Source of the DNA: Candidatus Falkowbacteria bacterium
GTDB taxonomy: Bacteria > Patescibacteriota > Patescibacteriia > XYB2-FULL-38-15
DNA length: 64,000 nt
NCBI GenBank assembly: GCA_016214745.1
Contig: JACRNW010000001.1
Span: 1,038-65,037, forward strand
Direction: 5' to 3'
Shown here one piece after another: positions 16,766 through 55,163 of this stretch (within the stretch, counting starts at the first letter, position 1; every line of letters begins with the position of its first letter). A program made the translations under genes and the position numbers. The notes under the pieces are model-generated. The model had not been told where the DNA came from. It saw only the letters and a list, made by a program, of their open reading frames with translations, and ran no database searches.

Positions 16766-16779
16766 TTTTGAGACCAAAC

Positions 16780-16851
16780 TCCGAGACTTGGATTCGTCCG
16801 GTCATTCGACCGGACGCCCCGTCGGATGACGGGGCGAACTCCCGCCCTAAT
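16780..16851 (-). repeat. tRNA-linked GC-rich hairpin element, ending in a degenerate copy of the tRNA-Gln 3' end
   Basis: Read in tRNA orientation: after tRNA-Gln comes GGGCGGGAGTTCGCCCCG, then hairpins CCCCGTCatccGACGGGG and GTCCGGTCgaatGACCGGAC, then CGAATCCAAGTCTCGGAG. That last stretch copies the tRNA 3' end CGAATCCAGGTCCCCGAG. Confidence 0.55.
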
Positions 16852-16922
16852 CTCGGGGACCTGGATTCGAACCAGGATAGCCACCTTCAAAGGGTGGTGT
16901 CCTACCGTTAGACGATCCCCGA
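16852..16922 (-). tRNA. tRNA-Gln (anticodon UUG)
   Basis: Manual fold: acceptor UCGGGGA/UCCCCGA with the U1:A72 typical of bacterial tRNA-Gln, D-arm GTCT/GGAC, anticodon stem CCACC/GGTGG with loop CTTTGAA, T-arm CCTGG-TTCGAAT-CCAGG, discriminator G. No CCA is encoded. Confidence 0.8.
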
Positions 16923-16947
16923 GAGCAGAGCGAGAAATTTAAATAAA

Positions 16948-17929: not shown

Positions 17930-18280
17930 CTAGAATTTAGAATTAACAAAGTTATTTAATATTTTCATCACCTCTACTAAGGTAATCTCTACTCCTTTAA
18001 AACTTAATTTCGGAAATAAAACTTTAGCAATTTCGATCTGGCTTTCCAATTCTGACCCAGAACCAAACGCAACGCACAATAATTGTTTCTTTTCTTTGGC
18101 GTGAAAACGATGATAGCTCTCAGCAATATTGGAAGAAATAGAAATTACAGCTCTTCTCATCTGATTCGTTAAACCATACACTTCAGAATGAGGAAATTCA
18201 TCTGTCAACCGATAAATCTCTACAGCCAAATCACGCGCTTTCTGCCAAACCACCAATTCCTTAAAAGATTTTGTGGCCAT
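17930..18280 (-). CDS. four-helix-bundle protein (23S rRNA intervening-sequence protein family, TIGR02436-like)
   Basis: 116 aa. VVWQKARDLAVEIYRLT...ISSNIAESY is characteristic of this family. It is inserted between ftsE and ftsX. Confidence 0.7.
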   Translation of the reverse strand: MATKSFKELVVWQKARDLAVEIYRLTDEFPHSEVYGLTNQMRRAVISISSNIAESYHRFHAKEKKQLLCVAFGSGSELESQIEIAKVLFPKLSFKGVEITLVEVMKILNNFVNSKF

Positions 18281-19089: not shown

Positions 19090-19265
19090 GATTAATATTT
19101 ACAAAAAGGCGCGGGATTAGTATAGTGGCAGTATGCGACCTTCCCAGGCCCCCACACCAAATTCGCGAGAGTAGTTCAATGGTAGAATGCGTGCTTCCCA
19201 AGCACGAGACGGGGGTTCGATTCCCCTTTCTCGCTGATTTGGTGTAGGGGCAAGTTGAGGCGCCG
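19090..19265 (+). other. outer tRNA-Gly(CCC)-like sequence interrupted by ~105 nt that contain a complete tRNA-Gly(CCC) (probable disrupted or pseudo tRNA)
   Basis: The 5' part GCGGGAT-TA-GTAT-AGTGGCA-GTAT-G-CGACC-TTCCCA(G) is a tRNA 5' half with a CCC anticodon loop. The 3' part (A)AGTTG-AGGC-GCCGG-TTCGATT-CCGGT-ATCCCGC-T supplies a T-arm and a complementary acceptor strand. The two parts are separated by 19127..19230. Confidence 0.4.
19144..19214 (+). tRNA. tRNA-Gly (anticodon CCC)
   Basis: GCGAGAG-TA-GTTC-AATGGTA-GAAT-G-CGTGC-TTCCCAA-GCACG-AGAC-GGGGG-TTCGATT-CCCCT-TTCTCGC-T, a clean cloverleaf. It is bracketed by a 14/15-bp helix (19127..19141 pairing with 19216..19230). Confidence 0.85.
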
Positions 19266-19282
19266 GTTCGATTCCGGTATCC

Positions 19283-19424
19283 CGCTTTGAAAATACAAAT
19301 AAATTTTGGCGGAATCGAACGGGAAGGGTTTGGGAAACGGGAGTTTCCCACCTTTTCGGCGGAAAACAGTTGGGGAAAACCGCCGGTTTGCCCCAAGCGC
19401 AGTCCCGCCATGGCGGGACGAGTA
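19283..19424 (+). ncRNA. tRNA-linked structured element (copy 1) ending in a duplicate of the preceding tRNA 3' end
   Basis: TTTTGGCGGAATCGAACGGGAAGGG, hairpin GGGAAACgggaGTTTCCC, hairpin CGGCGG...CCGCCG, hairpin GCGCAGTCCCGCCATGGCGGGACGAGTAGTGAG, then ATTCCGGTATCCCGCT, which copies 19250..19265. A homologous copy lies at 28989..29120. Confidence 0.55.
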
Positions 19425-19447
19425 GTGAGATTCCGGTATCCCGCTTT

Positions 19448-19523
19448 TAAAAACTTGGCGCAATCTTTGCCGACGTAGCTCAGCCAGCAGAGCAATGCTT
19501 TCGTAAAGCAGAGGTCGTGGGTG
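19448..19523 (+). tRNA. tRNA-Thr (anticodon CGU), CCA encoded
   Basis: GCCGACG-TA-GCTC-AGCCAGCA-GAGC-A-ATGCT-TTCGTAA-AGCAG-AGGTC-GTGGG-TGCAAAT-CCCAC-CGTCGGC-T-CCA. Confidence 0.8.
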
Positions 19524-19524
19524 C

Positions 19525-19558
19525 AAATCCCACCGTCGGCTCCAGAAAACAGCAATTC
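19525..19558 (+). terminator. rho-independent terminator after tRNA-Thr
   Basis: AAAACAGCaattcatttttgaagGCTGTTTTTT. Confidence 0.55.
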
Positions 19559-19562
19559 ATTT

Positions 19563-19583
19563 TTGAAGGCTGTTTTTTGATTT
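19563..19583 (+). repeat. degenerate duplicate of tRNA-Thr 3' end
   Basis: AACTCCCACCGTCGGCTTAGG versus the tRNA 3' end AAATCCCACCGTCGGCTCCA. Confidence 0.5.
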
Positions 19584-19642
19584 AACTCCCACCGTCGGCT
19601 TAGGAAAAACGGACTTTTAGAGAAAGGCCGTTTTTCTTTTTC

Positions 19643-20653
19643 CTAAATTTTTATAAACCGCCAAATTCTTGCCTTTGCTGATTCTTCAGTCAGATAATCG
19701 TCCAAACTCTTTGTCTTTATTAAAATATGCTCCGCCCGTACTTGGATGACTTCGCCATTTTCATCTTTAACTTGCTCCGTAACTTTTATAATATGGTAAC
19801 CATAACTCGTTAAAACCAAATCGCTTGTCTCTCCGACTCCGAGAGCAAACGCCGCCGCTTCAAATTCCGGGACCATGGTTCCTCGGCCAAAATAACTCAG
19901 GTCGCCGCCATCCTCCGCAGTCGTGTCTTCACTGTATTCTTTTGCCAAATCCTCAAAACTTTTTTCTCCCCTTTTCACTTCAGCCAAAACATTTTCAGCT
20001 TTTTGTTTCGCCTCTTGGTTTAATGTCTCGTCTTTGGAAATGGCTTCCTGCAATTTTTGCTGGATTAAAAACGGCTTTAAAACTTTTTCCTTAAACTCTT
20101 CAATGCCCCAGCCGTATTGTTCTTGCAAAGTTTTTTCAACATTTTCCCTTGATTCGTCTTGAGAGACAATCTTTTCCACTTCCGCTTCCAGCTCGCTGTC
20201 TGAAACGCTCACATTATATTTTTTTGCCAATTGATAAGAAAGTTCATTTTTCAAAAGCCGATCCAAAACCTGGCTTTTAAGTTCTTGCTCGCTCGGTATC
20301 TCCGCTCCCAATTCCGCGCCCTGGCTCGCAAAAAAAGTCTTTAAAGTTTCCAGGTCATCCGCGTAATCGGAAAATCTGACCGGATGCCAATTAACAAGAG
20401 CGGCGGGATATGGCGCAACTTTGGTAATTTTTGCGACGACTTCTCCGCTCCAGCCAAAACGATAAATTCCGATGCCGAAAATTACCGCGGCTAAAACTAA
20501 AATTGAAAGCGCTCCCAAGCCAAGTCCCAAAAAGAATTTTTTCAGGCCGCCTTTTTTAGAATCAGACATTGTCTCGCCCGCGCCGGCTGTTTCGGGAATA
20601 GATTCAGAAACTTCCATCTCTTTTTCCTCGTTCTCTTTTAATGGTAAATCCAT
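19643..20653 (-). CDS. membrane-anchored parvulin-type peptidyl-prolyl isomerase (PrsA/SurA-like)
   Basis: N-terminal TM helix and a SurA_N-like helical region. The C-terminal PpiC domain reads GGDLSYFGRGTMVPEFEAAAFALGVGETSDLVLTSYGYHIIKV. Confidence 0.7.
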   Translation of the reverse strand: MDLPLKENEEKEMEVSESIPETAGAGETMSDSKKGGLKKFFLGLGLGALSILVLAAVIFGIGIYRFGWSGEVVAKITKVAPYPAALVNWHPVRFSDYADDLETLKTFFASQGAELGAEIPSEQELKSQVLDRLLKNELSYQLAKKYNVSVSDSELEAEVEKIVSQDESRENVEKTLQEQYGWGIEEFKEKVLKPFLIQQKLQEAISKDETLNQEAKQKAENVLAEVKRGEKSFEDLAKEYSEDTTAEDGGDLSYFGRGTMVPEFEAAAFALGVGETSDLVLTSYGYHIIKVTEQVKDENGEVIQVRAEHILIKTKSLDDYLTEESAKARIWRFIKI

Positions 20654-20666
20654 AAATTTTGGCTAT

Positions 20667-20778
20667 CTACAAATTACGAATTTTGATACAAATATACAAA
20701 TTCCTTCTGACGCGTTAATTCACCAAAAAATGTTCTTGGCCGTTATTTGTATATTTGTAAATGATTTGTAATTTGTAG
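20667..20778. repeat. MITE-like palindromic intergenic element, family 1 copy R1 (~112 bp: ~35-bp inverted arms + conserved ~45-bp core)
   Basis: Left arm CTACAAATTACGAATTTTGATACAAATATACAAAT. Right arm ATTTGTATATTTGTAAATGATTTGTAATTTGTAG. Core ...GACGCGTTAAT...AAATGTTCTT...GTT. About 80% identical to 55051..55160. Confidence 0.6.
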
Positions 20779-20788
20779 TAATATTTAT

Positions 20789-26459: not shown

Positions 26460-26525
26460 CTACGAATTACAAATTATTTACAAATGTACAAATTTGTATA
26501 TTTGTATTTGATTCGTAATTTGTAG
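26460..26525. repeat. palindromic element, family 1 short copy R3 (arms only, no core)
   Basis: CTACGAATTACAAATTATTTACAAATGTACAAAT directly abuts its inverted partner ATTTGTATATTTGTATTTGATTCGTAATTTGTAG. Confidence 0.55.
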
Positions 26526-26528
26526 TAA

Positions 26529-28799: not shown

Positions 28800-28900
28800 A
28801 AAACTCTTGCCAAAAATAAAATGCCTTGGTATTATTATATCAAATTAAGACTAAAACGGCTATCAACGACTTCCTCGTTCTTTTTTTAAAATTTCATTAT

Positions 28901-28973
28901 GACCCGGTAGCTCAGCTGGTAGAGCATCTGCCTTTTAAGCAGAGTGTCCTGGGTTCGAGCCCCAGCCGGGTCA
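28901..28973 (+). tRNA. tRNA-Lys (anticodon UUU)
   Basis: GACCCGG-TA-GCTC-AGCTGGTA-GAGC-A-TCTGC-CTTTTAA-GCAGA-GTGTC-CTGGG-TTCGAGC-CCCAG-CCGGGTC-A. Confidence 0.9.
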
Positions 28974-28988
28974 TTTTTTATTTGCTAA

Positions 28989-29120
28989 TTTTTGGCTGGG
29001 CTCGAACGGGAAGGGGTCGGGAAACGGGAGTTTCCCGATTTGCGGAAATATTAAAACCGCAGGGTTTTAAAGCGCAGTCCCGCCATGGCGGGACGAGCAG
29101 TGAGCGCCCCAGCCGGGTCA
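28989..29120 (+). ncRNA. tRNA-linked structured element (copy 2) ending in duplicate of tRNA-Lys 3' end
   Basis: TTTTTGGCTGGGCTCGAACGGGAAGGGG, hairpin CGGGAAACgggaGTTTCCCG, hairpin TGCGG...CCGCA (compensatory relative to copy 1), GCGCAGTCCCGCCATGGCGGGACGAGCAGTGAGC, then GCCCCAGCCGGGTCA plus TTTTTTATTT, which duplicates 28958..28983. Confidence 0.55.
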
Positions 29121-29141
29121 TTTTTTATTTCCCCATAATTT

Positions 29142-41723: not shown

Positions 41724-43340
41724 TTATTTAATAATTTTTACCACGCCGTGATTGGCGTCCACCTCTACTATATCGCCATCTTTTAAAACCTTTGTCGCGA
41801 TTTTGGTGCCGATGACACAGGGAATACGAAGTTCGCGAGCCACAATTGCCGCATGAGAAGTTACCCCACCCTGCTCCGTAACAATAGCTGCGGCTTTTTT
41901 CATGGCTGATACTAAATCTGGATTAGTGGCGATAGAAACTAAAATATCGCCCTTCCGCATCTTTTCCATGTCTTCGGGATTGATAACAATTCTCACCGCA
42001 CCCTTCGCTTTTCCTACACAACCACACTGACCTTTTATTTCGCTGACTTCTTCTGCCCCTTTTTCCCGAACTGATTCCGCTAACCTTTTTGCCTTCTCGC
42101 CCGTAAAGACCACGTCTCTCTCCTTTTCGGCGTAATAAACGCAAAGTTTTGTCCGCTTCTTAATTTCTTTTTTATCAAGTCTACTTTTCAAAAGAGCTGC
42201 CCCAACTTCCTGCGGCAGCATAAATTTTACTTGCATCAAACTCAAACCCAGTCTTCTTCCGATCTCCCGTAAAATCGCTTCCATTTGATAAATAGCAAAT
42301 ATCTGCGCATAACGGCGGTATATTTTTGTAATCATAAAATTGCCAAAAGCATCAAAAATTTTTCTCCAGCCGCCTTTGATTTTCAATTTTTTAATCAATG
42401 CATTTCTTTTTCGAACGCCCACTTTAAACTCCTGCTGCATTTCTTGATATTTCTTTTCCAAATCACCTGATACCACAAGCCTCACCAATTCTTTCAGATA
42501 ATGATCAAAACTGTAAATCCCCTGCTTTTCAGTAAAAAGATATCTCATGTAAAAATACTTAAGATAATGTTTTTCTAAAAGTTTATAAATTTCCGGACCA
42601 ATTCTTTCTTTGATTTTTCCCGCTTCTTGCTCAAACAGTTCTTCATATTTTTTTGAATGGGTTTTAAAACCGTACTTTGTTACCTCCCCCTCTTTAAACT
42701 TTTTAAATAATTCCAGAAATAATTTGAGCTGATTTTTGTCTTGTTGAACTTTTTGACCAATTTTCAAAAGTTCCTCTTGTTCAACTTGAATAAGAGATTT
42801 TTGGATTGGCTGAGTAAGAATGACTAGATGTTCATTTATTTTTTCTTCGGAAATTCCAGCGTCTCGCAGATGCTCTTTTAATCGATTAGTCAGATTATTG
42901 TGAAACATGTCAGCAGCAACCGGAATCCATCCCCAACAATAATAGTCAGTGTGAATTTGGTCATGCTTATTGTAAAATTTCCACAACTCTCGTTTAGACA
43001 ATTGCGATAAATTATCTTGTGGCAAAGTATTGGCGTAATTTCTTAACTTATCTGACCAGATTATAATCTCTTTGTTGACCCGCTCGGCGAACTTTGGATT
43101 TTTAATAAATTTTTGGACTATATTCTCACCAACCTCAAAGGAATCATTTTCCCCGTAATAAAACCAAAGATGATAACCGCGATAAATACAAATAATTTTT
43201 TTATAAGCACGACCAGTGAATCTCTTAAATTCATTAACAAAATTTGAAAGCCAGATCTGAGAAAATAAAAAATCGCAATTTGGAATCTCTTCCCCCAACA
43301 TCCACAAGTCTTTGTCATTTAAATATTTCAGCTTTTTCAT
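41724..43340 (-). CDS. PEP-utilising-enzyme mobile (phosphohistidine swivel) domain protein with ~380-aa helical N-terminal domain, paralog 1
   Basis: C-terminus [30 protein letters not shown]. Confidence 0.75.
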
Positions 43341-44839
43341 ATTTTTAATTGTTTCACAACTTTTATTACTCCTTTTGTAGCGTCGACTTCCACTAAATCT
43401 CCATCTTTTAAAACTTTAGTTGCGATTTTGGTGCCAATGACGCAAGGAATTCCCAACTCGCGGGAAATAATGGCGGCATGGGAAGTTATACCGCCCTCGT
43501 CCGTAACAATAGCCGCGGCTTTTTTCATCAAAGGCACATATTCCGGCCTCGTCATGCCGGCTACTAAAATTTCTCCTTTTTCAAGCTTAGCGCCTTTTGG
43601 ATTTAATACTACACGCACCCGCCCCCGAACTTTTCCTCCGGAAGCCGCTGAACCCTTCAATATATTATCTTTGATTTGAATATTTTGAGCAATGATCTTT
43701 TCGGCAAACTTTAAATATTTTTTTCCAGACAAAATTATTCTTTCTCCGTCGTCTTTGTTAATTGATATAAATAACTTTTGGCGCCGTTTTATTTCTTCTT
43801 TGTCATATTGACCATTGGATTTTAAAAATTCAATAAACTCCGGCGCAATCATAAAATGTAAATCAACAAAGGGGACGTTAAACTTTTTGGCTGCTAATTC
43901 CATAATTGTACCGACGGCGTAATTCATATATAAGCCGGTTTTCTTTCTAGCATCTTGCCAAAAACTGGCCACGGCAAACATTTCTAAAAATTGTGCGTCT
44001 TTTTTTAATATTAAATATTTTTTAATCAATTCCCGTTTTTTAGATTTAATATTTTGTTCGTAGTTTTCCAATTTTTCTATTTCTCCCTTGATCTCCCGCC
44101 GAGATTTACCCCTAGTAAGTTCTTGGGCACTTCGCCAAAATTCCCTTTCGCTCACATTTTTATGTTCATAATAACCATTCTCTATCCAAAAATATTTCTT
44201 TTGATGAGATTGAATTAATTGTTTTATTTCTCGAGAAGCCGATCCGTAAGATTTGATTAATTGATCTTTGGCTTTCAGCGCAATGCGCATCAAACCAAGA
44301 TTATTTTCCGCCGAGAAACTCAAACGAGGCTCTTTTAATAATTTAAACAAATCATCGCCGGAAATTTTATATTTATTCTTTATTCCATTTATGTCCTCTT
44401 CGCCAATCATTGATGGCGCTTCAGGTATTGTGGCTCGCCCAAATTCGTAATGAAATTTTTCGGTAATCAATCTATATGATTCCAACAATGGCAGAAAATT
44501 GTTTCTTGCTCTTTGCTGGACAAGGTCAATAAATTCTTTCGCTTCTTTCTGCCAAATGTCAAAATGGTCTTGCACTTTTTTAATATTTTTCTTAAACCAT
44601 TTATAATTCTTAGCCAATTCCGCCTTGTCAAGCACCCAATGAGCTTTCCTGCCGCCATCAAAAATCACACTAAATAAAAATGTATTCATTGAAAACCCAA
44701 GCGTGTCTTTGCTACCGGCACACCAGGCCTCCTCCGCGAGATCATCAAAATGCGGACGCAAAACCGGACCATAAATAGATTTATCCTTTATTGCCTTCAA
44801 TTTTTCTTCCAATATTTGTAATTTTTCCCGGTCATCCAT
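43337..44839 (-). CDS. phosphohistidine swivel domain protein, paralog 2
   Basis: [30 protein letters not shown], plus the shared N-domain motifs ([12 protein letters not shown]; ...[10 protein letters not shown]). Confidence 0.75.
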
Positions 44840-45118
44840 ATATTTATTTTTTGTTCATGTTTCTTTTTCAGTCTCCTTGTCCAATCTAATCGCGTCGCAA
44901 TAATGCGCAGACACCGCACCCATTTGACAAAATTTTCAAAATAGATTATACTATATTGTTTGGTAAAGGTGAAAAATTGTCTGATTCTAGACAATTTTTC
45001 CCATACTAAATTGCACTTTGATAGTGGGCAAAAATTGTTTGGAGACGCTCTATTTATCTCGGTTGAGGTAACGAGAGCGTCTTCAAACAACCGCCCCGAG
45101 GGGGCAAGGAGGAGATCA

Positions 45119-45727
45119 ATGCCCGCAACGATCGTCGTGGTTCGCCATCCCGAGAAGGACGGAGACAAGATCACCCCGCACGGCGCAGAGCAGGCCTTTG
45201 CGGCGGCGCTGGCGCTCGGCGAACGGTTCAAGAACTTCGAAGGGTTCGACCGGCTCATCCACTCCGGCGCGCACCGCGCCTGGCAAGCGCTCCGCGTCAT
45301 GGCCGCGGCCCTGGGTCTGAAACTCCCGGACGAAGAGCGCTCCTTCTTGAACTTCACGGCCACACTCACGCAGACGCTCGGCAGCTCCGACGCGTTCTAC
45401 GCCGAAGTGGCCAAGATGAAGGCGGCGGAAGGAACGGACCGGCTGACGCTCGCCATGGCGCTCCGCCACAGCGAGTTCGCTCGCCAAGGCCGCCAGATCA
45501 TGATCAATGGTCTCCTCGGTCTTGCCTGTGACATGGCGATGAGGGGCCAGGCGACGGCACTCACCGTTTCCCATTCGCCCTGGCTCGAACTGGCGTCCTT
45601 CGACACCGAGAACACGCCCTACGGCATCGGCGAAAGCGATGCCGTGATCTACGTCGTGGCGGGCGACGAAATCCTCGTCGGGAGCGAACTCGTCCGAGCC
45701 CCGCTCCCCGGCAAGCCGCTTTTCTAG
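45119..45727 (+). CDS. histidine phosphatase superfamily protein (SixA/PGAM-like), GC-rich (~64%)
   Basis: MPATIVVVRHPEKDGDKITPHG (RH-type catalytic motif) and a later TVSHSPW. A strong SD CAAGGAGGAG precedes ATG 45119. The ORF track's longer frame from 44960 is AT-rich leader. Confidence 0.55.
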   Translation: MPATIVVVRHPEKDGDKITPHGAEQAFAAALALGERFKNFEGFDRLIHSGAHRAWQALRVMAAALGLKLPDEERSFLNFTATLTQTLGSSDAFYAEVAKMKAAEGTDRLTLAMALRHSEFARQGRQIMINGLLGLACDMAMRGQATALTVSHSPWLELASFDTENTPYGIGESDAVIYVVAGDEILVGSELVRAPLPGKPLF

Positions 45728-45757
45728 CCTACCTCACCTTTCCCACCGAAGTGCATC

Positions 45758-45796
45758 TCCCACGCCCGGTCTCCTGACTGGGCGTTCTTTTTTTAT
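45758..45796 (+). terminator. rho-independent terminator
   Basis: CACGCCCGGtctcctgaCTGGGCGTTCTTTTTTTATTT. Confidence 0.5.
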
Positions 45797-46051
45797 TTAC
45801 CCTGTTAAATAAGATTTGAGCCGATTCCTTAAAAATAACTTGCCGAGATAGGTCTTTAAATACTTTTCTCTATGGGTGGCATCTTGTTGATTCAAACAAG
45901 CCTCATAATATATTAAAACTAATGGCCCTCTGTCTTTAGTAGATTCAACTTTCCTTTTTTGATGAAGCTCAAATCTTGATTTTAAATCTTTGGTATAACC
46001 TGTGTAGAATTTTTTATCCTTTAAGGACATCAAAACATATACGTAATGCAT
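45797..46051 (-). CDS. GIY-YIG nuclease superfamily small protein
   Basis: 84 aa. HYVYVLMSLKDKKFYTGYTKDLKSRFELHQ is the GIY-(10-11)-YIG module. Confidence 0.7.
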   Translation of the reverse strand: MHYVYVLMSLKDKKFYTGYTKDLKSRFELHQKRKVESTKDRGPLVLIYYEACLNQQDATHREKYLKTYLGKLFLRNRLKSYLTG

Positions 46052-46061
46052 AGATTTAAAA

Positions 46062-47576
46062 TCATTTAACGGGGTGAATTTTTTTAACTACTCCTTTTGT
46101 CGCGTATACTTCAACTAAATCTCCATCCTTCAAAACCTTCGTCGCGATTTTTGTTCCGATGACGCAAGGTTTTTTCATTTCTCGGGCGACAATGGCCGCG
46201 TGGCACATAATGCCGCCTTCGTCAGTGACAATAGCCGCAGCTTTGCGAATGGCGGGCATTAAGTTTGGGCTAGTGGCGGCGGAAACCAAAATATCTTTTT
46301 CATTCATTTTTTTTATTTCTTCGGGAGTATTTATCAACTTCACCTTTCCCCTTGCCTTACCCTTAAAGGCGACTGCCCCAGTAATTTCCTTCACCGCTTT
46401 TATCTCTTTCTCTTTCCCGGCATTCTCGTGAAAAAAATCTTGCGCCTGTTTACCGGTCAGACAAAGTTTTCTTCCGCCCTTTCTCCCGTAAACAACTAAT
46501 TTAATTCGTTCGTTAATAACGCCAGAATTAATTTTCCCCCTAAGCAATGCCTCTTCCATTTCTTCCGGCAACATCATCCTGACTTGTTTCAAACTTAGAC
46601 GTAAACGTTTTGCAATTTCTTTTAGTAAAAATTCTGCGTGATAGTATGACCAGGTTTGTAATTCGCGGCGATAAGGTTTGAAAAAGACCAAATCCCTGGC
46701 TAACTCAATGATATTCCGCTCGTAATCGTTGGCTTTAATTTGTTTTAATATTTTCTTTTGCTGTGATCTAATATCTGATTTACTCTTTTTGTGTTCTGCT
46801 ATTTCCTTGGAGGGATTTATTTCCCGACGAATAAAATCTTTGATTATATCAAGAAAATAAATATGATCTGCCGCCGGTCCCTCGTAAACGTAATGCACCC
46901 AAGCGTATCTTTGGGTATGATTATCCACCAACCGCCAAACTTTTTTATTATTCTCCCTAATATATTTTACTAATTCTTGTGAATCTAAAACTTTAAATTT
47001 CTTTTCCAAATTTTTATATTTTTTAATTTGAATCAAAACTTTCAAGAGATCCAACTCCTGCTGTTTATTAAAGGTTTCACGCAAGGGCGTAGTCAGTTCT
47101 CCAAAATATTTTTCCGCTTTTTTATTTTTAAGAATTCTATTTAATTCATCCGATAAAAAAGTCGTGTTTTGATAATCCAAGAGGGGAGAAATTAAACCAT
47201 ACGCATACACTTCTTGATTTGATAACACATAATGCTGATAATAATTGTTCAAAACTCTATTACTCTTTCCTTTTAAATTACTTTTAAAAATTTTCGTAAA
47301 AGATGCCTGTTCCAAACCAAGTTTTTCCATTTGCGAAAAAATATTTCTCAAAAAATTTTGATTTTTCTTAATTAGTTTTACAATTGCAAAATGTGCCGCG
47401 CCCCAATTACTCGGCAGATGATAATACTCAATCGCGTTATTCTCAATTTTGAAAAAAAGGTCCCCCGACTTCCCTATTATCTTTTTTATATTTTTGCTGA
47501 ACGCTTCTACCATCGTGAATATGGGAAATAGAGAAACAACATATTCATTGGCTATCTTTTGCCATTTTTCTTTCAT
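46062..47576 (-). CDS. phosphohistidine swivel domain protein, paralog 3
   Basis: [30 protein letters not shown], plus the shared N-domain motif QRYAWVHYVYEGP. Confidence 0.75.
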   Translation of the reverse strand: MKEKWQKIANEYVVSLFPIFTMVEAFSKNIKKIIGKSGDLFFKIENNAIEYYHLPSNWGAAHFAIVKLIKKNQNFLRNIFSQMEKLGLEQASFTKIFKSNLKGKSNRVLNNYYQHYVLSNQEVYAYGLISPLLDYQNTTFLSDELNRILKNKKAEKYFGELTTPLRETFNKQQELDLLKVLIQIKKYKNLEKKFKVLDSQELVKYIRENNKKVWRLVDNHTQRYAWVHYVYEGPAADHIYFLDIIKDFIRREINPSKEIAEHKKSKSDIRSQQKKILKQIKANDYERNIIELARDLVFFKPYRRELQTWSYYHAEFLLKEIAKRLRLSLKQVRMMLPEEMEEALLRGKINSGVINERIKLVVYGRKGGRKLCLTGKQAQDFFHENAGKEKEIKAVKEITGAVAFKGKARGKVKLINTPEEIKKMNEKDILVSAATSPNLMPAIRKAAAIVTDEGGIMCHAAIVAREMKKPCVIGTKIATKVLKDGDLVEVYATKGVVKKIHPVK

Positions 47577-47591
47577 ATTTTTACTATTAAT

Positions 47592-49127
47592 TTACTTAAT
47601 TACTTTTACCACTCCCTTTGTCGCGTCTACTTCCACCAAATCTCCGTCTTTTAAAATTTTACTAGCATTTTTTGTACCAATAATACATGGCTTATTCATC
47701 TCGCGCGCGACGATTGCCGCATGAGAAGTAATGCCGCCGATATCTGTCACGAAAGCCGCGGCTAATTTCATGGCTGGCAAAAGCTGAGGAATGGTTTGAA
47801 CTGCCACTAGAATATCATCTTTTTTTATTTTCTTCATCTCGTACGGCTCGTTGATAATTTTCACCACTCCCCTAACCTTGCCGGCGCAGGCAATATTACC
47901 TTTAATAACACCTGTTTTGACTACCCGCTCGATCTGGAATTTTTCTCTGATAATTTTTTCGGCTTTTTCCCCGGTAAAAATTCTTAAATCGTTAAGATCC
48001 TTAACGTAATTTACGCAAAAATTATATCTTTGTCTCAACATGCTAACCCTGGGAATTTTTCCGCCCCTTAGCATTCTAATGAACTCGAATCTGGTTAAAT
48101 TTTGTAAATCCTTGTAATCTTTTCCTGAACTCCGGGCAAATCTTTTTAAGGATAAGGTCAAAAGGTAAAAAGTGAAAAATAGTAATTCTGAACGAATCAT
48201 CTTTGCTCCGGCAAATTCTCGGGCAGTCTCAAAATAATGCCTTTCACCCTCATCCAAATTAAGCTCTTTGAAATACTGCTCTTGCAATTTAATCAAAGGT
48301 CGCAAGTCAACTGATTCTTTTAAATTTCCTAATTCTTTTTTATCTTCTAAAATCACCTCTATTTTTTCTATTAATTTTTTCAGATCCATTTCTGGGCCAA
48401 TGTGACCGTAGTCTATCCATCTAAACTGATAAACCAAATCATTCAATCCCGAGAACAAGGCGGGGTAATTCCTTTTCAATAATGAAAATAACCTTGGGGT
48501 CGGGCTTTCCAAAAAAATATTTTTTATTTTTAATCTTTCTATTTCCTGACAAATATCAAATAATTTCTTTTTAAAAATAAAACTTTTTGTTTTTAACGAT
48601 GTCTTACCTAAAACGCCCACATAACTCCCAAGGGATCTTTTCAATTTATATTGCTCAATCTTTTTATTAACAATTTTTTCCAAAGCGTTGGAAAGCCCGT
48701 AGTGACTTAAATCGGCCATCACTGCTCCAAACCCCACGCTGCAAATTTTAAAAAATGTTTCAATTGCCTCTTCCCATTTATCGGCTATCTTTTTGAAATT
48801 GGGATTTTCATTTTCCAACAAATCAAAGATTTCATAATATTTTTTATAAAGATCAACCGCAATCTCTTCGGTTTTGATCAATATCTTTTTCCCATAATTT
48901 TTTTCACTATGAATCTTCTTGGCAATTTTTTCTCCCAAAACCCGCAAAATATCTGGATTGCAAAACCATTCTTCCGTGCCTCCTTTAAAGAGGACATAAT
49001 TATCTCTCATCCGGGGCAATCCCAAATATTCCTCTATTAATTTATGAGAAAATGCTTCTTGGTTAATGGTAATATTAAGAAAAACGGTATTATTTTCTTT
49101 GTGGGTTGAAACGTATTTCTTTTCCAT
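47592..49127 (-). CDS. phosphohistidine swivel domain protein, paralog 4
   Basis: [30 protein letters not shown], plus the N-domain motif QFRWIDYGHIGP. Confidence 0.75.
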   Translation of the reverse strand: MEKKYVSTHKENNTVFLNITINQEAFSHKLIEEYLGLPRMRDNYVLFKGGTEEWFCNPDILRVLGEKIAKKIHSEKNYGKKILIKTEEIAVDLYKKYYEIFDLLENENPNFKKIADKWEEAIETFFKICSVGFGAVMADLSHYGLSNALEKIVNKKIEQYKLKRSLGSYVGVLGKTSLKTKSFIFKKKLFDICQEIERLKIKNIFLESPTPRLFSLLKRNYPALFSGLNDLVYQFRWIDYGHIGPEMDLKKLIEKIEVILEDKKELGNLKESVDLRPLIKLQEQYFKELNLDEGERHYFETAREFAGAKMIRSELLFFTFYLLTLSLKRFARSSGKDYKDLQNLTRFEFIRMLRGGKIPRVSMLRQRYNFCVNYVKDLNDLRIFTGEKAEKIIREKFQIERVVKTGVIKGNIACAGKVRGVVKIINEPYEMKKIKKDDILVAVQTIPQLLPAMKLAAAFVTDIGGITSHAAIVAREMNKPCIIGTKNASKILKDGDLVEVDATKGVVKVIK

Positions 49128-49136
49128 AAAATATTC

Positions 49137-50675
49137 TTAAATTTTTTTCACAATCCCCCTTGTCGCATCAACCTCCACTAAATCTCCATCCCTCAAAACT
49201 TTCGTAGCAATTTTCGTGCCGACGACACAGGGAATTTTTAATTCCCGAGAGACAATCGCCGCATGGCACGTCAAACCGCCAACGTTCGTAACAATAGCCG
49301 AAGCAAGTTTCATGGCCGGAACAAGAGCCGGATAAGTTGTTTCGCTCAACATCACATCTCCCTTTTTCATTTTTTTCAAATCATCTACTGTCTCAATTAT
49401 TGACACTCGCCCCTTCGCCCTTCCTGGCGAAGCGCAAATCCCAAATAATTTTTCTACTTTTTTAACTTTCTGTTCAACAAATGTAGATCTGTCCAGAAAT
49501 TCCTGCGCCGCCTTACCGATATAAACCACCGGCCGATGAACGCTATCGGTATAAATCAGACTAAAATTATATCTCTCATTTAATTTGTTGGCATCATACT
49601 TATCTTTTAATAATGCGTCTTTCACCTCCCAATTACAGAAAAATCTTACCTGCCTTAAACTTAAACCAAGTCTTCGTCCAATTTCTTTGGCTATTTTATC
49701 CAAAACATAGGCGCCATAATACATACAATCTTTGCGCCAACTCTTCAACCAAACAATATCTCTTGCGATATCAAAAAGTTTTTTCTCTTTCTTGCTAAAA
49801 TTTAATTGTTTAAAAATTTTTACCCTTTTTTTCTTTATCTCCGCAAATTTATTCTTACCCTCTTCTATCAATTCCTCAATATTATTTTGTTTCAGAAGTC
49901 CTCGCCAAATTTCCAAAAAATATTCTAATTCAAGAACTGGCCCTTCGTAGTTATAGTGTAACCAAAGATATTTTTGATAATGCTTTTTTATCTTCTGTTG
50001 TAAAGAGGGGCTAATCTTGTTCAGATTTTTTTTGATCTCATCAATATTATTTTTCAAAAATAAATTTTTTGTTTTCTGATCTTTTTTCAACAACTTAACT
50101 AACTCTAATGATTCTTTTGATTCAATCTCAATAAAACTGGATTTTTCGGGGGTGGTAAGAACACTAAATGTCTCTGATAATTTTTGATCAGATTTAACTT
50201 TCTTTTTTAATAAATCTAAAAGATAATTACTAAAAAGTTGGCGATCAGCTTCCAGGAGCCACGTGGTTATTTGTCCAGGAAGATGAGACCAATATTGGCG
50301 GTCAATCAATTGATCAAAAACTCCCGCCAATTGCTTGCCTGATAGTGCCGAAAAATCTTTATTTTCTAAACTTTTTGCAAAAGAAAAATAATTCTTGGTA
50401 TATTTTACCAATTCTGAATTTCTTTTTTCTGTCCATTCGGGATATTTAACAGTTTTATTGAGCAAAAAATTTATACCCTTAGTAAAATCATCTCTTAAAT
50501 AACAAAGTGTAAGCGTGCCTTCATTTACAATAAATAAAACATGCTTGAAGTGTGGGCCGCCGCCTTTTTTCTCTATGTAAGTACCGTACTCTTCAAGAAA
50601 CGGCACAAGCATAAGGTAGTTGCACTTTGGGATTTTTTCAATTTTGAACCATCTAAATTTCTTTATTTCTTCCAT
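49137..50675 (-). CDS. phosphohistidine swivel domain protein, paralog 5
   Basis: ASAIVTNVGGLTCHAAIVSRELKIPCVVGT, plus N-domain motifs QKYLWLHYNYEGP and [13 protein letters not shown]. Confidence 0.75.
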   Translation of the reverse strand: MEEIKKFRWFKIEKIPKCNYLMLVPFLEEYGTYIEKKGGGPHFKHVLFIVNEGTLTLCYLRDDFTKGINFLLNKTVKYPEWTEKRNSELVKYTKNYFSFAKSLENKDFSALSGKQLAGVFDQLIDRQYWSHLPGQITTWLLEADRQLFSNYLLDLLKKKVKSDQKLSETFSVLTTPEKSSFIEIESKESLELVKLLKKDQKTKNLFLKNNIDEIKKNLNKISPSLQQKIKKHYQKYLWLHYNYEGPVLELEYFLEIWRGLLKQNNIEELIEEGKNKFAEIKKKRVKIFKQLNFSKKEKKLFDIARDIVWLKSWRKDCMYYGAYVLDKIAKEIGRRLGLSLRQVRFFCNWEVKDALLKDKYDANKLNERYNFSLIYTDSVHRPVVYIGKAAQEFLDRSTFVEQKVKKVEKLFGICASPGRAKGRVSIIETVDDLKKMKKGDVMLSETTYPALVPAMKLASAIVTNVGGLTCHAAIVSRELKIPCVVGTKIATKVLRDGDLVEVDATRGIVKKI

Positions 50676-55050: not shown

Positions 55051-55160
55051 CTACAAATTACAAATTTAGTACAAATATACAAATCCTTGCCAACACGTTA
55101 ATCTAATAGAAATGTTCTTCACTGTTATTTGTATATTTGTAAATGATTTGTAATTTGTAG
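55051..55160. repeat. MITE-like palindromic intergenic element, family 1 copy R2
   Basis: CTACAAATTACAAATTTAGTACAAATATACAAAT...CACGTTAATCTAATAGAAATGTTCTTCACTGTT...ATTTGTATATTTGTAAATGATTTGTAATTTGTAG. It fills the whole intergenic gap. Confidence 0.6.
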
Positions 55161-55163
55161 TAT

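Follow-up and report, generated by a model that had tools for sequence, protein, structure and literature searches.

The tRNA genes for Gln, Gly, Thr and Lys in a 64,000-nt stretch of a Candidatus Falkowbacteria contig (JACRNW010000001.1; the whole stretch is called here the window) are each followed by a second copy of their own 3' end. Behind two of them, tRNA-Lys and an interrupted or 'outer' tRNA-Gly, this copy closes the same non-coding element of about 110 nt, which we have named E. Read from 5' to 3', E consists of an arm that is the reverse complement of the T-loop and T-stem 3' strand of its own tRNA, a core, and the direct copy of the tRNA tail; the core has a near-invariant GAAC-GGGAAGGGGTC with a GNRA hairpin, then a strongly covarying hairpin and then a GC palindrome. 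E is apparently a widespread and so far undescribed family of structured tRNA-tail elements, spread across genomes of the candidate phyla radiation (CPR). The reading we favour, with a probability of about 45%, is that each duplicate is the trace of a miniature non-coding cassette inserted by recombination into the T-loop of a tRNA gene. The descriptive claims made below are well supported, while the insertion mechanism and a function for the host are put forward as hypotheses.

Tail duplicates and element E in the window

A first-pass annotation of the window, made from the sequence alone, had reported a second copy of the 3' end at every tRNA seen, starting inside the T-loop and separated from the gene by a short cargo of 40-130 nt. 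The last 30 nt of each tRNA were scored against the 300 nt downstream, with 2000 random 300-nt pieces of the window as the null. The duplicate of the outer Gly tail matched at 17/17 positions (19429-19445; null maximum 13), that of Lys at 16/16 (null maximum 12) and that of Thr at 16/17 (19584-19600; null maximum 11), while the Gln duplicate (15/18, at 16779-16796 on the minus strand) was weaker, about 0.2% of the null pieces scoring as high. The tail duplicates are real and far beyond what chance alignment gives, Gln being the weakest case. They are present at the Gln, outer Gly, Thr and Lys loci, as had been reported, but not at every tRNA, the inner tRNA-Gly having no duplicate of its own tail. 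The duplicated tails are 16-27 nt long, every copy does start within the T-loop, and the distance from tRNA to copy is 39-144 nt, close to the earlier estimate, with no open reading frame (ORF) in the inserts; the resemblance to attL/attR also holds, the tRNA tail being directly repeated from within the T-loop onwards. Two positions had to be corrected by about 21 nt upwards, the Gly copy from 19409..19424 to 19430-19445 and the Thr copy from 19563..19583 to 19584-19604; the Lys copy, given as 29101..29130, lies at 29102-29130, near enough. At this last locus an exact repeat of 25 nt takes in 10 nt of flank (28959-28983 = 29106-29130, repeat family D12). The first reading had missed that the Lys and Gly cargos are homologous, that they open with an inverted copy of the T-arm, and that the four cases differ in kind: Lys and Gly carry E, Gln carries another mini-element of the arm-core-copy plan, and Thr has neither arm nor core.

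The Lys (28994-29101) and outer-Gly (19308-19428) cargos share blocks of 34 and 26 nt that occur nowhere else in the window, and both contain TCGAACGGGAAGGG, GGGAAACGGGAGTTTCCC and an identical block of about 35-41 nt around the palindrome GTCCCGCCATGGCGGGAC. The E-Lys arm covers the T-loop, the T-stem 3' strand and 2 nt of the acceptor; its duplex with the tail (-12.9 kcal/mol) forms the closing helix of the predicted fold (-59.5 kcal/mol, z=-3.7), and E-Gly also folds better than expected (z=-2.4). Both are predicted to form a four-way junction (P1-P4) closed by arm-tail pairing. A covariance model, R1, built from eight insertion-free members of the family, gave exactly two matches in the window, at E-Lys (28993-29103, 62 bits, E=7e-13) and E-Gly (19306-19393, 43.5 bits). 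These two copies diverged long ago and yet share the identical hairpin block, which suggests module exchange or a separately mobile hairpin. No promoter-like site was found 5' of E in the window.

GC-rich palindromic hairpins of the form CCGCC-N4-GGCGG lie at 19397-19429 and 29072-29104, and such hairpins sit at differing positions inside E of loci L138, L140, L145, L148, L149 and L177. A very stable GCGAAGC mini-hairpin recurs at the matching position in other E copies.

The E family in CPR genomes

A degenerate core pattern, scanned once over 185,579 species genomes, returned 64 loci, 59 of them real E elements and 5 GC-rich chance matches. The labels of the 59 genome loci are mostly Patescibacteria (Moran-, Parcu-, Sacchari-, Berkel-, Uhr-, Harrison-, Colwell-, Vogel- and Paceibacteria); 13 are third-party metagenome bins with unverified Bdellovibrionales or Gammaproteobacteria labels. 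The R1 search found 65 copies in the CPR loci, including divergent ones that the pattern had not caught. In nearly all loci, and in most of the copies with an upstream tRNA called, E lies 6-130 nt 3' of a tRNA on the same strand, and 16 isotypes are represented (Ser, Thr, Tyr, Arg, Asn, Gly, Asp, Lys, Leu, Glu, Pro, Ile, Ala, Gln, Val and Met).

Both ends of E follow the adjoining tRNA. A copy of the tail of its own tRNA ends E in 44/54 cases (score of at least 14). Across 46 elements this copy agrees with the tRNA to 96% or more at most of the final 15 positions and to 91% at both end positions, and the identity collapses to background at T-loop positions 55/56, where many copies have GTGAGA and not GTTCGA. 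In Moranbacteria the tail copy tracks the T-stem changes of its tRNA. The arm always begins at GAAC (the complement of G53-C56) beside the core and extends outward over a variable 7-21 nt; its complement in the tRNA starts at position 53, goes no further than 72/73 and always leaves out the CCA. Pairing of the arm with the cognate tail was stronger than with the tails of other tRNAs (-10.9 versus -6.9 kcal/mol, p=2e-8), a comparison that excludes the generic T-loop complement. Closing helices were obtained by duplex folding, which replaced a local-alignment detection that was too noisy. In them the tail lies in continuous duplex with the antisense arm over a median of 15 pairs (typically 10-22 bp), and some span the entire tail; in long-arm copies such as L129 (21 nt, reaching into the acceptor complement), the discriminator base is also paired. 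An interpretation of the arm as a disrupted sense T-arm, left by an intron in the T-loop, was rejected, the arm being antisense (CTCGAAC and not TTCGAGC in Lys) and extending in L129 through 21 nt with acceptor complement.

The structure of E is under selection. In 63 distinct sequences P3 is paired at 97.7%, with compensatory changes at 8/8 pairs and more than 15 distinct stem sequences, and P2 shows compensatory changes at 4/7 pairs. None of 500 shuffles reached any of five covariation measures and no slid register came near, with the caveat that the alignment had been fitted to the model. The loop of P2 is GNRA in 61/65 copies, on one strand only. Wobble pairs are almost absent (5 G-T and 3 A-C among 747) and so do not tell apart the two strands, or RNA and folded single-stranded DNA, as the selected form. 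Two classes of middle domain exist in E, and several positions may carry an additional GC-palindrome hairpin. Two resemblances judged by eye were discarded: a hammerhead-like core, for which there was no covariance-model match, and a G-quadruplex in GGGAAGGGGTCGGGAAACGGGA, whose fourth G-tract is missing from GGAA-loop variants.

Sister genomes and locus histories

The loci were compared, as the first-pass annotation had proposed, with metagenome contigs that encode a SurA-like protein 70-74% identical to that of the window and keep the gene order. The R1 search found no E in about 56 kb of this sister DNA. The Lys site is empty in L186, where the tRNA is directly followed by TTTTTTATTTCC (tRNA...GGGTCATTTTTTATTTCC without insert), and the Gly site of L186, L187 and L189 consists of an intact tRNA-Gly, 2 nt and tRNA-Thr. 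The 105-nt nested-tRNA insertion in the anticodon loop of the outer tRNA-Gly is absent from these three and shared only with L185, which later lost the outer T-arm. The clean sister sites imply that the anticodon insertion and E were both gained in the window lineage, or precisely lost elsewhere. The nested tRNA-Gly resembles a tRNA gene overwritten by a self-contained replacement.

The Thr site retains its ancestral form in L185, L187 and L189, where the tRNA runs straight into (T)AGGAAAAACGGAC...GGCCGTTTTTC, that is, (T)AGG and a hairpin that we call terminator A. L186 has only CCA and a different hairpin, terminator B, and the window has the tRNA, CCA, terminator B, the old tail, TAGG and terminator A in a row. 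It follows from these arrangements that the upstream tail, with CCA and terminator B, is the newcomer, and the Thr locus is the same event without arm or core: a new tail, CCA and a new terminator placed before the old tail.

At the Gln site, the window tRNA differs from the sister alleles (L186:13062-13135, L187:11350-11423 and L189:2955-3028) by two compensatory pair changes, one at acceptor pair 3-70 and one in the T-stem, and the downstream copy retains the sister-type T-stem and acceptor. The mini-element enclosed between them has a predicted fold of -39.7 kcal/mol (z=-3.4), in which the arm pairs with the tail copy as a closing helix, and lies outside the E family (no R1 match). Behind the tRNA-Gln of the sisters there is a different cargo of about 120 nt with a perfect 22/22 tail duplicate.

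Other core families, arrays and terminators

Tail duplicates were also present at 13-15 of the 63 tRNAs that lack a strict-pattern E in the CPR loci. They enclose divergent E or unrelated cores of the same arm-core-copy plan, the latter at L136 Arg (667) and Glu (1227), L152 Asp, L164 Gly (3117, 2.3 tandem units), L153 Tyr, L169 Leu, L166 Glu and L192 Lys (5836). Five or more additional core families, unrelated to one another, can be told apart; all have antisense arm, core and tail copy, and none is in Rfam. A 'tiny' family among them of about 55 nt has the layout arm-TGAGAAGTTTA-GC hairpin-copy. Tandem arrays occur in L164 (two E and 2.3 tiny units) and L171 (at least two E units). Both arrays consist of tail-spacer-arm-core units, with a terminal extra spacer and arm that lack a core. 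Related Moranbacteria have different cargos behind the same tRNA-Glu, and in one metagenome-assembled genome cores about 90% identical stand behind tRNA-Ser (L170) and tRNA-Gln (L178). A terminator, consisting of a hairpin and a T-run, lies between tRNA and E in about 24/44 elements (29/44 by a looser criterion), and in 15/44 the tRNA and the copy have each their own terminator, the two being almost always unrelated in sequence.

Searches for proteins and known relatives

E encodes no protein in cis. No integrase, transposase or reverse-transcriptase domain was detected in the 39 window ORFs scanned, and all-against-all clustering revealed no conserved ORF within 4 kb of E across the 59 loci, where only housekeeping synteny was apparent. 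The ORFs located between a distant tRNA and E in L131, L150 and L155 belong to no shared or obvious mobile-element family, although no domain search was run on them. A small GIY-YIG-like ORF (..YVLKSKKNGKRYIGYT..) was seen near tRNA clusters, 130-1200 nt upstream of E, in 4/59 loci including L154, too few to tie it to E.

With Rfam 15, at gathering and permissive thresholds, only tRNAs reached threshold, and no match overlapped an element in the window (E<=10) or in 8 other loci (E<=0.5). The phage and plasmid collections gave no BLAST match to the element, and the core 18-mer had 0 matches in 2.9 million viral contigs; the matches listed for the 14-mer TCGAACGGGAAGGG in viral contigs are probably due to chance. 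An exact look-up of the window proteins returned no near-identical strain on record. No description of such elements was found in the literature, the nearest being a report on group I introns (PMC13011429).

Comparison with known systems

The tRNA islands of tyrosine integrases share with E the direct repeat of the tail from the T-loop, a tRNA kept intact by the incoming tail, tandem insertions and different occupants of one tRNA. However, E-type cargos measure about 60-200 nt and have no integrase or other ORF, E combines an inverted copy of its target with a folded core that is conserved, and no phage or plasmid relatives were found. Kb-scale cargo or its remnants were not seen at the sister sites, which are empty or hold other elements of about 120 nt. 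The likeness to integrons lies in the imperfect hairpin of attC, two arms closing a variable structured centre, and in cassettes with a boundary between G and TT (T-loop GTTCGA), tandem arrays and no recombinase within the unit. The R''/R' consensus (RYYYAAC/GTTRRRY), on the other hand, does not fit, since the arm of E ends in ..TTCGAAC, its tail starts with GTTCGA or GTGAGA, and position 4 is C/G and not R/Y; in addition, the GTTC box is at the inner and not the outer end of the hairpin, the arms are tRNA-derived, no cassette ORF or attI lies near E, no integron integrase was found in the window ORFs scanned or near the sampled loci, and each array is headed by a tRNA gene.

Like Correia, RPE, ERIC and REP/BIME sequences, E is a non-coding, multi-copy, intergenic element of about 100-150 nt closed by inverted repeats, but its inverted repeats vary with the tail of the adjacent tRNA, its duplication is longer (17-27 nt or more against 2-10 nt) and it is strictly tied to tRNA 3' ends. 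It has in common with miniature inverted-repeat transposable elements a small size, multiple copies, the lack of coding capacity and presence or absence differing between relatives; its arms, in contrast, are not constant and pair specifically with their own tail even apart from the T-loop complement, and its duplication spans 16-27 nt or more, set by tRNA features, and not 2-10 nt. The group I introns in tRNAs of Patescibacteria interrupt the anticodon loop (35/36, 37/38), have at least 200 nt and match Rfam group I models (PMC13011429). They occur in the same phylum and, like E, are structured, non-coding, tRNA-associated and mostly devoid of homing endonuclease genes (PMC13011429), whereas E sits 3' of complete tRNAs (62-72 bits) and matches nothing in Rfam. 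E also recalls tRNA-like RNAs (tmRNA, viral tRNA-like 3' ends, YrlA) in bearing a tRNA-identical tail on a multi-helix, cloverleaf-like fold, but it appears to lack the acceptor 5' strand, its tail is predicted to pair with an antisense arm, it has no Rfam match, and there is one version per tRNA instead of one gene per genome. Unlike the primer-binding site of retroelements, which complements the 3'-terminal 18 nt including CCA, the arms of E start at the T-loop end and exclude CCA. An IS91-style insertion beside GAAC, considered by eye, was set aside because rolling-circle elements leave no duplication.

Origin of the elements

According to the cassette reading, the incoming unit would comprise a replacement tail (from the T-loop to the 3' end, often with a terminator), a 5' arm complementary to that tail and a conserved structured core. 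Reciprocal recombination inside the T-loop would keep the tRNA intact by means of the incoming tail and shift the resident tail to the far side, where it would appear as the 'duplicate', and the arm may pair with the tail adjoining it, closing the cloverleaf-like four-way junction P1-P4. Since such pairing recreates the duplex of the tRNA-gene 3' end within one strand, we propose an attC-like folded substrate: the folded form (single-stranded or extruded DNA, possibly RNA) would be acted upon in trans by a recombinase encoded elsewhere in the genome, much as the integron attC hairpin mimics a duplex site. The unrelated terminators and the Thr locus favour an incoming unit of 'tail + terminator + arm + core' and speak against duplication by a simple staggered cut as well as against a tRNA trailer that is obligatorily co-transcribed; a simple fill-in of the target is disfavoured likewise, the terminators after the tRNA and after the copy being unrelated. 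Among the explanations offered in the first-pass annotation, a small mobile element aimed at the T-loops of tRNAs is the one we favour, in view of the shared family, the many tRNAs and CPR genomes involved and the sister sites without it. Mini-remnants of repeated integration and excision found no support, given a conserved and covarying cargo, no integrase nearby and clean sister sites, and a processing or regulatory role of the elements is possible.

Several points weigh against the cassette reading. No recombinase was identified and no excised circle or junction was seen, the consensus boxes of attC are not matched, and, to our knowledge, tyrosine integrases neither require nor account for an inverted target copy lying 90 nt from the crossover. 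Gain and loss are not strictly separable, as a precise deletion between the repeats recreates 'empty' sites; the acquisition of arm and tail for a new tRNA is left unexplained by the model; and duplication at a staggered cut would also account for the exact Lys repeat of 25-27 nt, which takes in 10 nt of flank. Conservation points in the same direction. E is 94.5% identical between L129 and L176, against 81% for the spacer and 78% for the nearest coding DNA (in the pair L152/L154, E is 91% identical); the tRNA-Thr E of four syntenic Moranbacteria is 81-84% identical, with coding DNA at 65-75%; and separate Thr- and Glu-linked lineages of E persist alongside each other across Moranbacteria. Judging from these alignments, the pattern looks more like that of a selected function than of a purely selfish insert, and orthologous E outconserving its surroundings would be accounted for by a structure needed by the host, or by upkeep through continued homing or gene conversion.

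E could, alternatively, be mainly a host-useful non-coding RNA, or a cis-acting DNA or RNA module coupled to its tRNA, an explanation that we consider unlikely, though to be taken seriously. A cloverleaf RNA with a tRNA-identical 3' tail would contact the 5' half of the tRNA, its gene or its enzymes, and presence and absence would reflect loss or transfer through ordinary homologous recombination. Besides the conservation of orthologous E above spacer and adjacent coding DNA, the strong covariation with GNRA loops on one strand only, the predicted four-way junction, the long perfect arms retained in old orthologues (21 nt in L129) and the tail copy, whose identity is 96% or more along most of its length and which follows T-stem changes in Moranbacteria, are all in its favour. 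Yet a terminator splits the tRNA from about 24/44 E (29 by the looser criterion) with no room for a promoter, and none resembling one was found upstream of E in the window; sister genomes lack E at the same tRNAs, G-U pairs are nearly lacking (5/747), and the 16 isotypes, the tandem arrays and the replacement by unrelated cargos are behaviours of mobile DNA.

The variable arm could instead be a product of copying. A nick in the T-loop would prime the copying of element RNA or DNA, and the new end (..GTTC) would snap back on GAAC and copy the tail, yielding a target-matched arm together with a target-site duplication. This replicative insertion has a low probability in our view, although fold-back copying on GTTC/GAAC is the main alternative for the origin of the arm, where it fits the variable length but not the terminators. 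It would explain why the arm always runs from GAAC beside the core outward for 7-21 nt and matches whichever tRNA adjoins, why the exact 25-nt Lys repeat takes in flank, and the cores about 90% identical at different tRNAs of one genome (L170 Ser, L178 Gln). Fill-in duplication, however, should leave the upstream and downstream terminators identical or the upstream one absent, whereas they are usually unrelated, and long arms persist in old copies and are hence selected, more than mere birth marks. No reverse transcriptase was found among the window ORFs scanned, and group II introns are reported to be lacking from the phylum Patescibacteria (PMC13011429).

We give still less credit to unequal, homology-facilitated illegitimate recombination between divergent tRNA alleles from relatives, without a dedicated element. 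The Thr locus does look like an L186/L188-like allele (CCA and terminator B) joined to an L185/L187-like one (tail, TAGG and terminator A), and the Gln copy retains sister-type sequence; tRNA genes are, moreover, ideal homology anchors for such recombination in transformable bacteria. What it leaves unexplained is the conserved and covarying core of 110 nt and the tRNA-matched inverted arms at 16 isotypes in the sampled CPR genomes. As for decayed remnants of integrase-borne islands or prophages, or chance and assembly artefacts, direct repeats of tRNA 3' ends that start in the T-loop are the classic att scar, but none of the analyses specifically backs such an origin here, the same core stands in 59 independent assemblies, the sister sites are clean and hold no large island, no integrase fragments were found in the 39 window ORFs or in the 4 kb around the 59 loci, the core 18-mer is absent from the 2.9 million viral contigs with phage and plasmid BLAST also empty, and the match statistics of the duplicates are far past the null. 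This last explanation is hardly credible.

Beyond the cassette reading itself, it is conceivable, if on balance doubtful, that E and its sister families constitute a new class of protein-less tRNA-homing element in which the folded nucleic acid is the active agent, either as a single-stranded mimic of the site at which the tRNA gene recombines or as an RNA that, by catalysis or as a guide, directs its own insertion into the T-loop, or else a domesticated RNA bearing a tRNA tail that would sense or repair the cognate tRNA. CPR bacteria have tiny genomes with little space for junk, and in the sampled loci a conserved folded element of 100-150 nt stands behind a large share of the tRNA genes. If mobile, it would be the smallest known class of tRNA-targeting insertion and a clean system for structure-directed site-specific insertion and for the overwriting and replacement of tRNA genes; if a functional RNA, it would be a new RNA family, widespread and linked to the biology of tRNAs, in a major branch of life that is mostly uncultured. 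The elements also mislead annotation through the pseudo-tRNA fragments and nested tRNAs that they produce, and they mark hotspots of tRNA-gene turnover.

Features of the window

The window has a G+C content of 42% and is typical of a CPR/Patescibacteria genome, with nearly all genes on one strand; core genes include MreB, a mur/ftsW/mraY cell-wall cluster, FtsEX, a SurA-like peptidyl-prolyl isomerase and CTP synthase. tRNAs were called over the whole window with ARAGORN and Rfam covariance models, which agreed on four (Gln, Gly-CCC, Thr and Lys), a fifth being the split outer tRNA-Gly-CCC. Their positions and those of the associated elements are listed in Table 1.

Table 1. tRNA genes, tail copies and inserted elements in the window.
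Feature	Position	Strand	Basis or remark
Old tRNA-Gln tail CGAATCCAAGTCTCGGAG	16779-16796	-	Nearer the sister allele (..CCAAGTCCCGGAG) than the window's own tRNA
Gln mini-element	16797-16850	-	Arm GGAGTTCG (~16835-16847) and two GC hairpins
tRNA-Gln(UUG)	16851-16923	-	ARAGORN, Rfam
Outer tRNA-Gly(CCC)	19111-19146 + 19252-19286	+	Anticodon loop interrupted by inner tRNA-Gly
Outer tRNA-Gly 5' part, through anticodon-loop position 37	19111-19146	+	Matches intact tRNA-Gly of L186, L187, L189
Anticodon-loop insertion, 105 nt	19147-19251	+	16-nt inverted repeats GGCCCCCACACCAAAT / ATTTGGTGTAGGGGC around complete new tRNA-Gly(CCC)
Inner tRNA-Gly(CCC), complete	19165-19235	+	ARAGORN, Rfam
Outer tRNA-Gly 3' part	19252-19286	+	Anticodon-stem 3' strand, T-arm, acceptor 3' strand
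E-Gly 5' arm GGCGGAATCGAAC	19308-19320	+	Complement of outer tRNA-Gly T-loop and T-stem 3' strand
E-Gly core	19321-19428	+	P2 19332-19349; P3 19370-19396; P4 19402-19419, identical to E-Lys P4
Outer Gly tail copy GATTCCGGTATCCCGCT + TT	19429-19447	+	17/17 match
tRNA-Thr(CGU), CCA encoded	19469-19544	+	ARAGORN, Rfam
Terminator B hairpin GAAAACAGC...GCTGTTTTTT	19545-19583	+	Arrived with CCA; in window and L186, not in L185, L187, L189
Old tRNA-Thr tail AACTCCCACCGTCGGCT + TAGG + ancestral terminator A	19584-19645	+	Sister comparison
tRNA-Lys(UUU), intact, looks functional	28900-28974	+	ARAGORN; Rfam 71.6 bits; identical tRNA in sister L186
T-run TTTTTTATTT (first copy of duplicated flank) + spacer GCTAATTTTT	28974-28993	+	Sequence
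E-Lys 5' arm GGCTGGGCTCGAAC	28994-29007	+	Reverse complement of tRNA-Lys G53..C67
E-Lys core	29008-29101	+	GGGAAGGGGTC; P2, P3, P4; then GAGCAGT
E-Lys hairpins	P2 29019-29036; P3 29051-29070; P4 29077-29094	+	P2 with GGGA loop; P4 is palindrome GTCCCGCCATGGCGGGAC
Lys tail copy (displaced) GAGCGCCCCAGCCGGGTCA + TTTTTTATTT	29102-29130	+	Sequence; repeat match

Other features of the window were also noted. An ORF for a '23S rRNA intervening-sequence protein'/Avd-like four-helix bundle (17930-18280, minus strand) separates ftsX from ftsE, at a distance of about 0.8 kb to the tRNA-Gly/Thr cluster. An AT-rich intergenic repeat of 53 nt (AAATGTTCTT..TTTGTAATTTGTAGTA) occurs three times (20728-20780, 26475-26527 and 55110-55162), two of the copies being 94% identical. 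Finally, five tandem paralogous ORFs of about 500 amino acids each occupy 41724-50675 and have in common a 214-nt repeat at 67-72% identity; the one paralogue that was scanned has a C-terminal PEP-utilising mobile domain.

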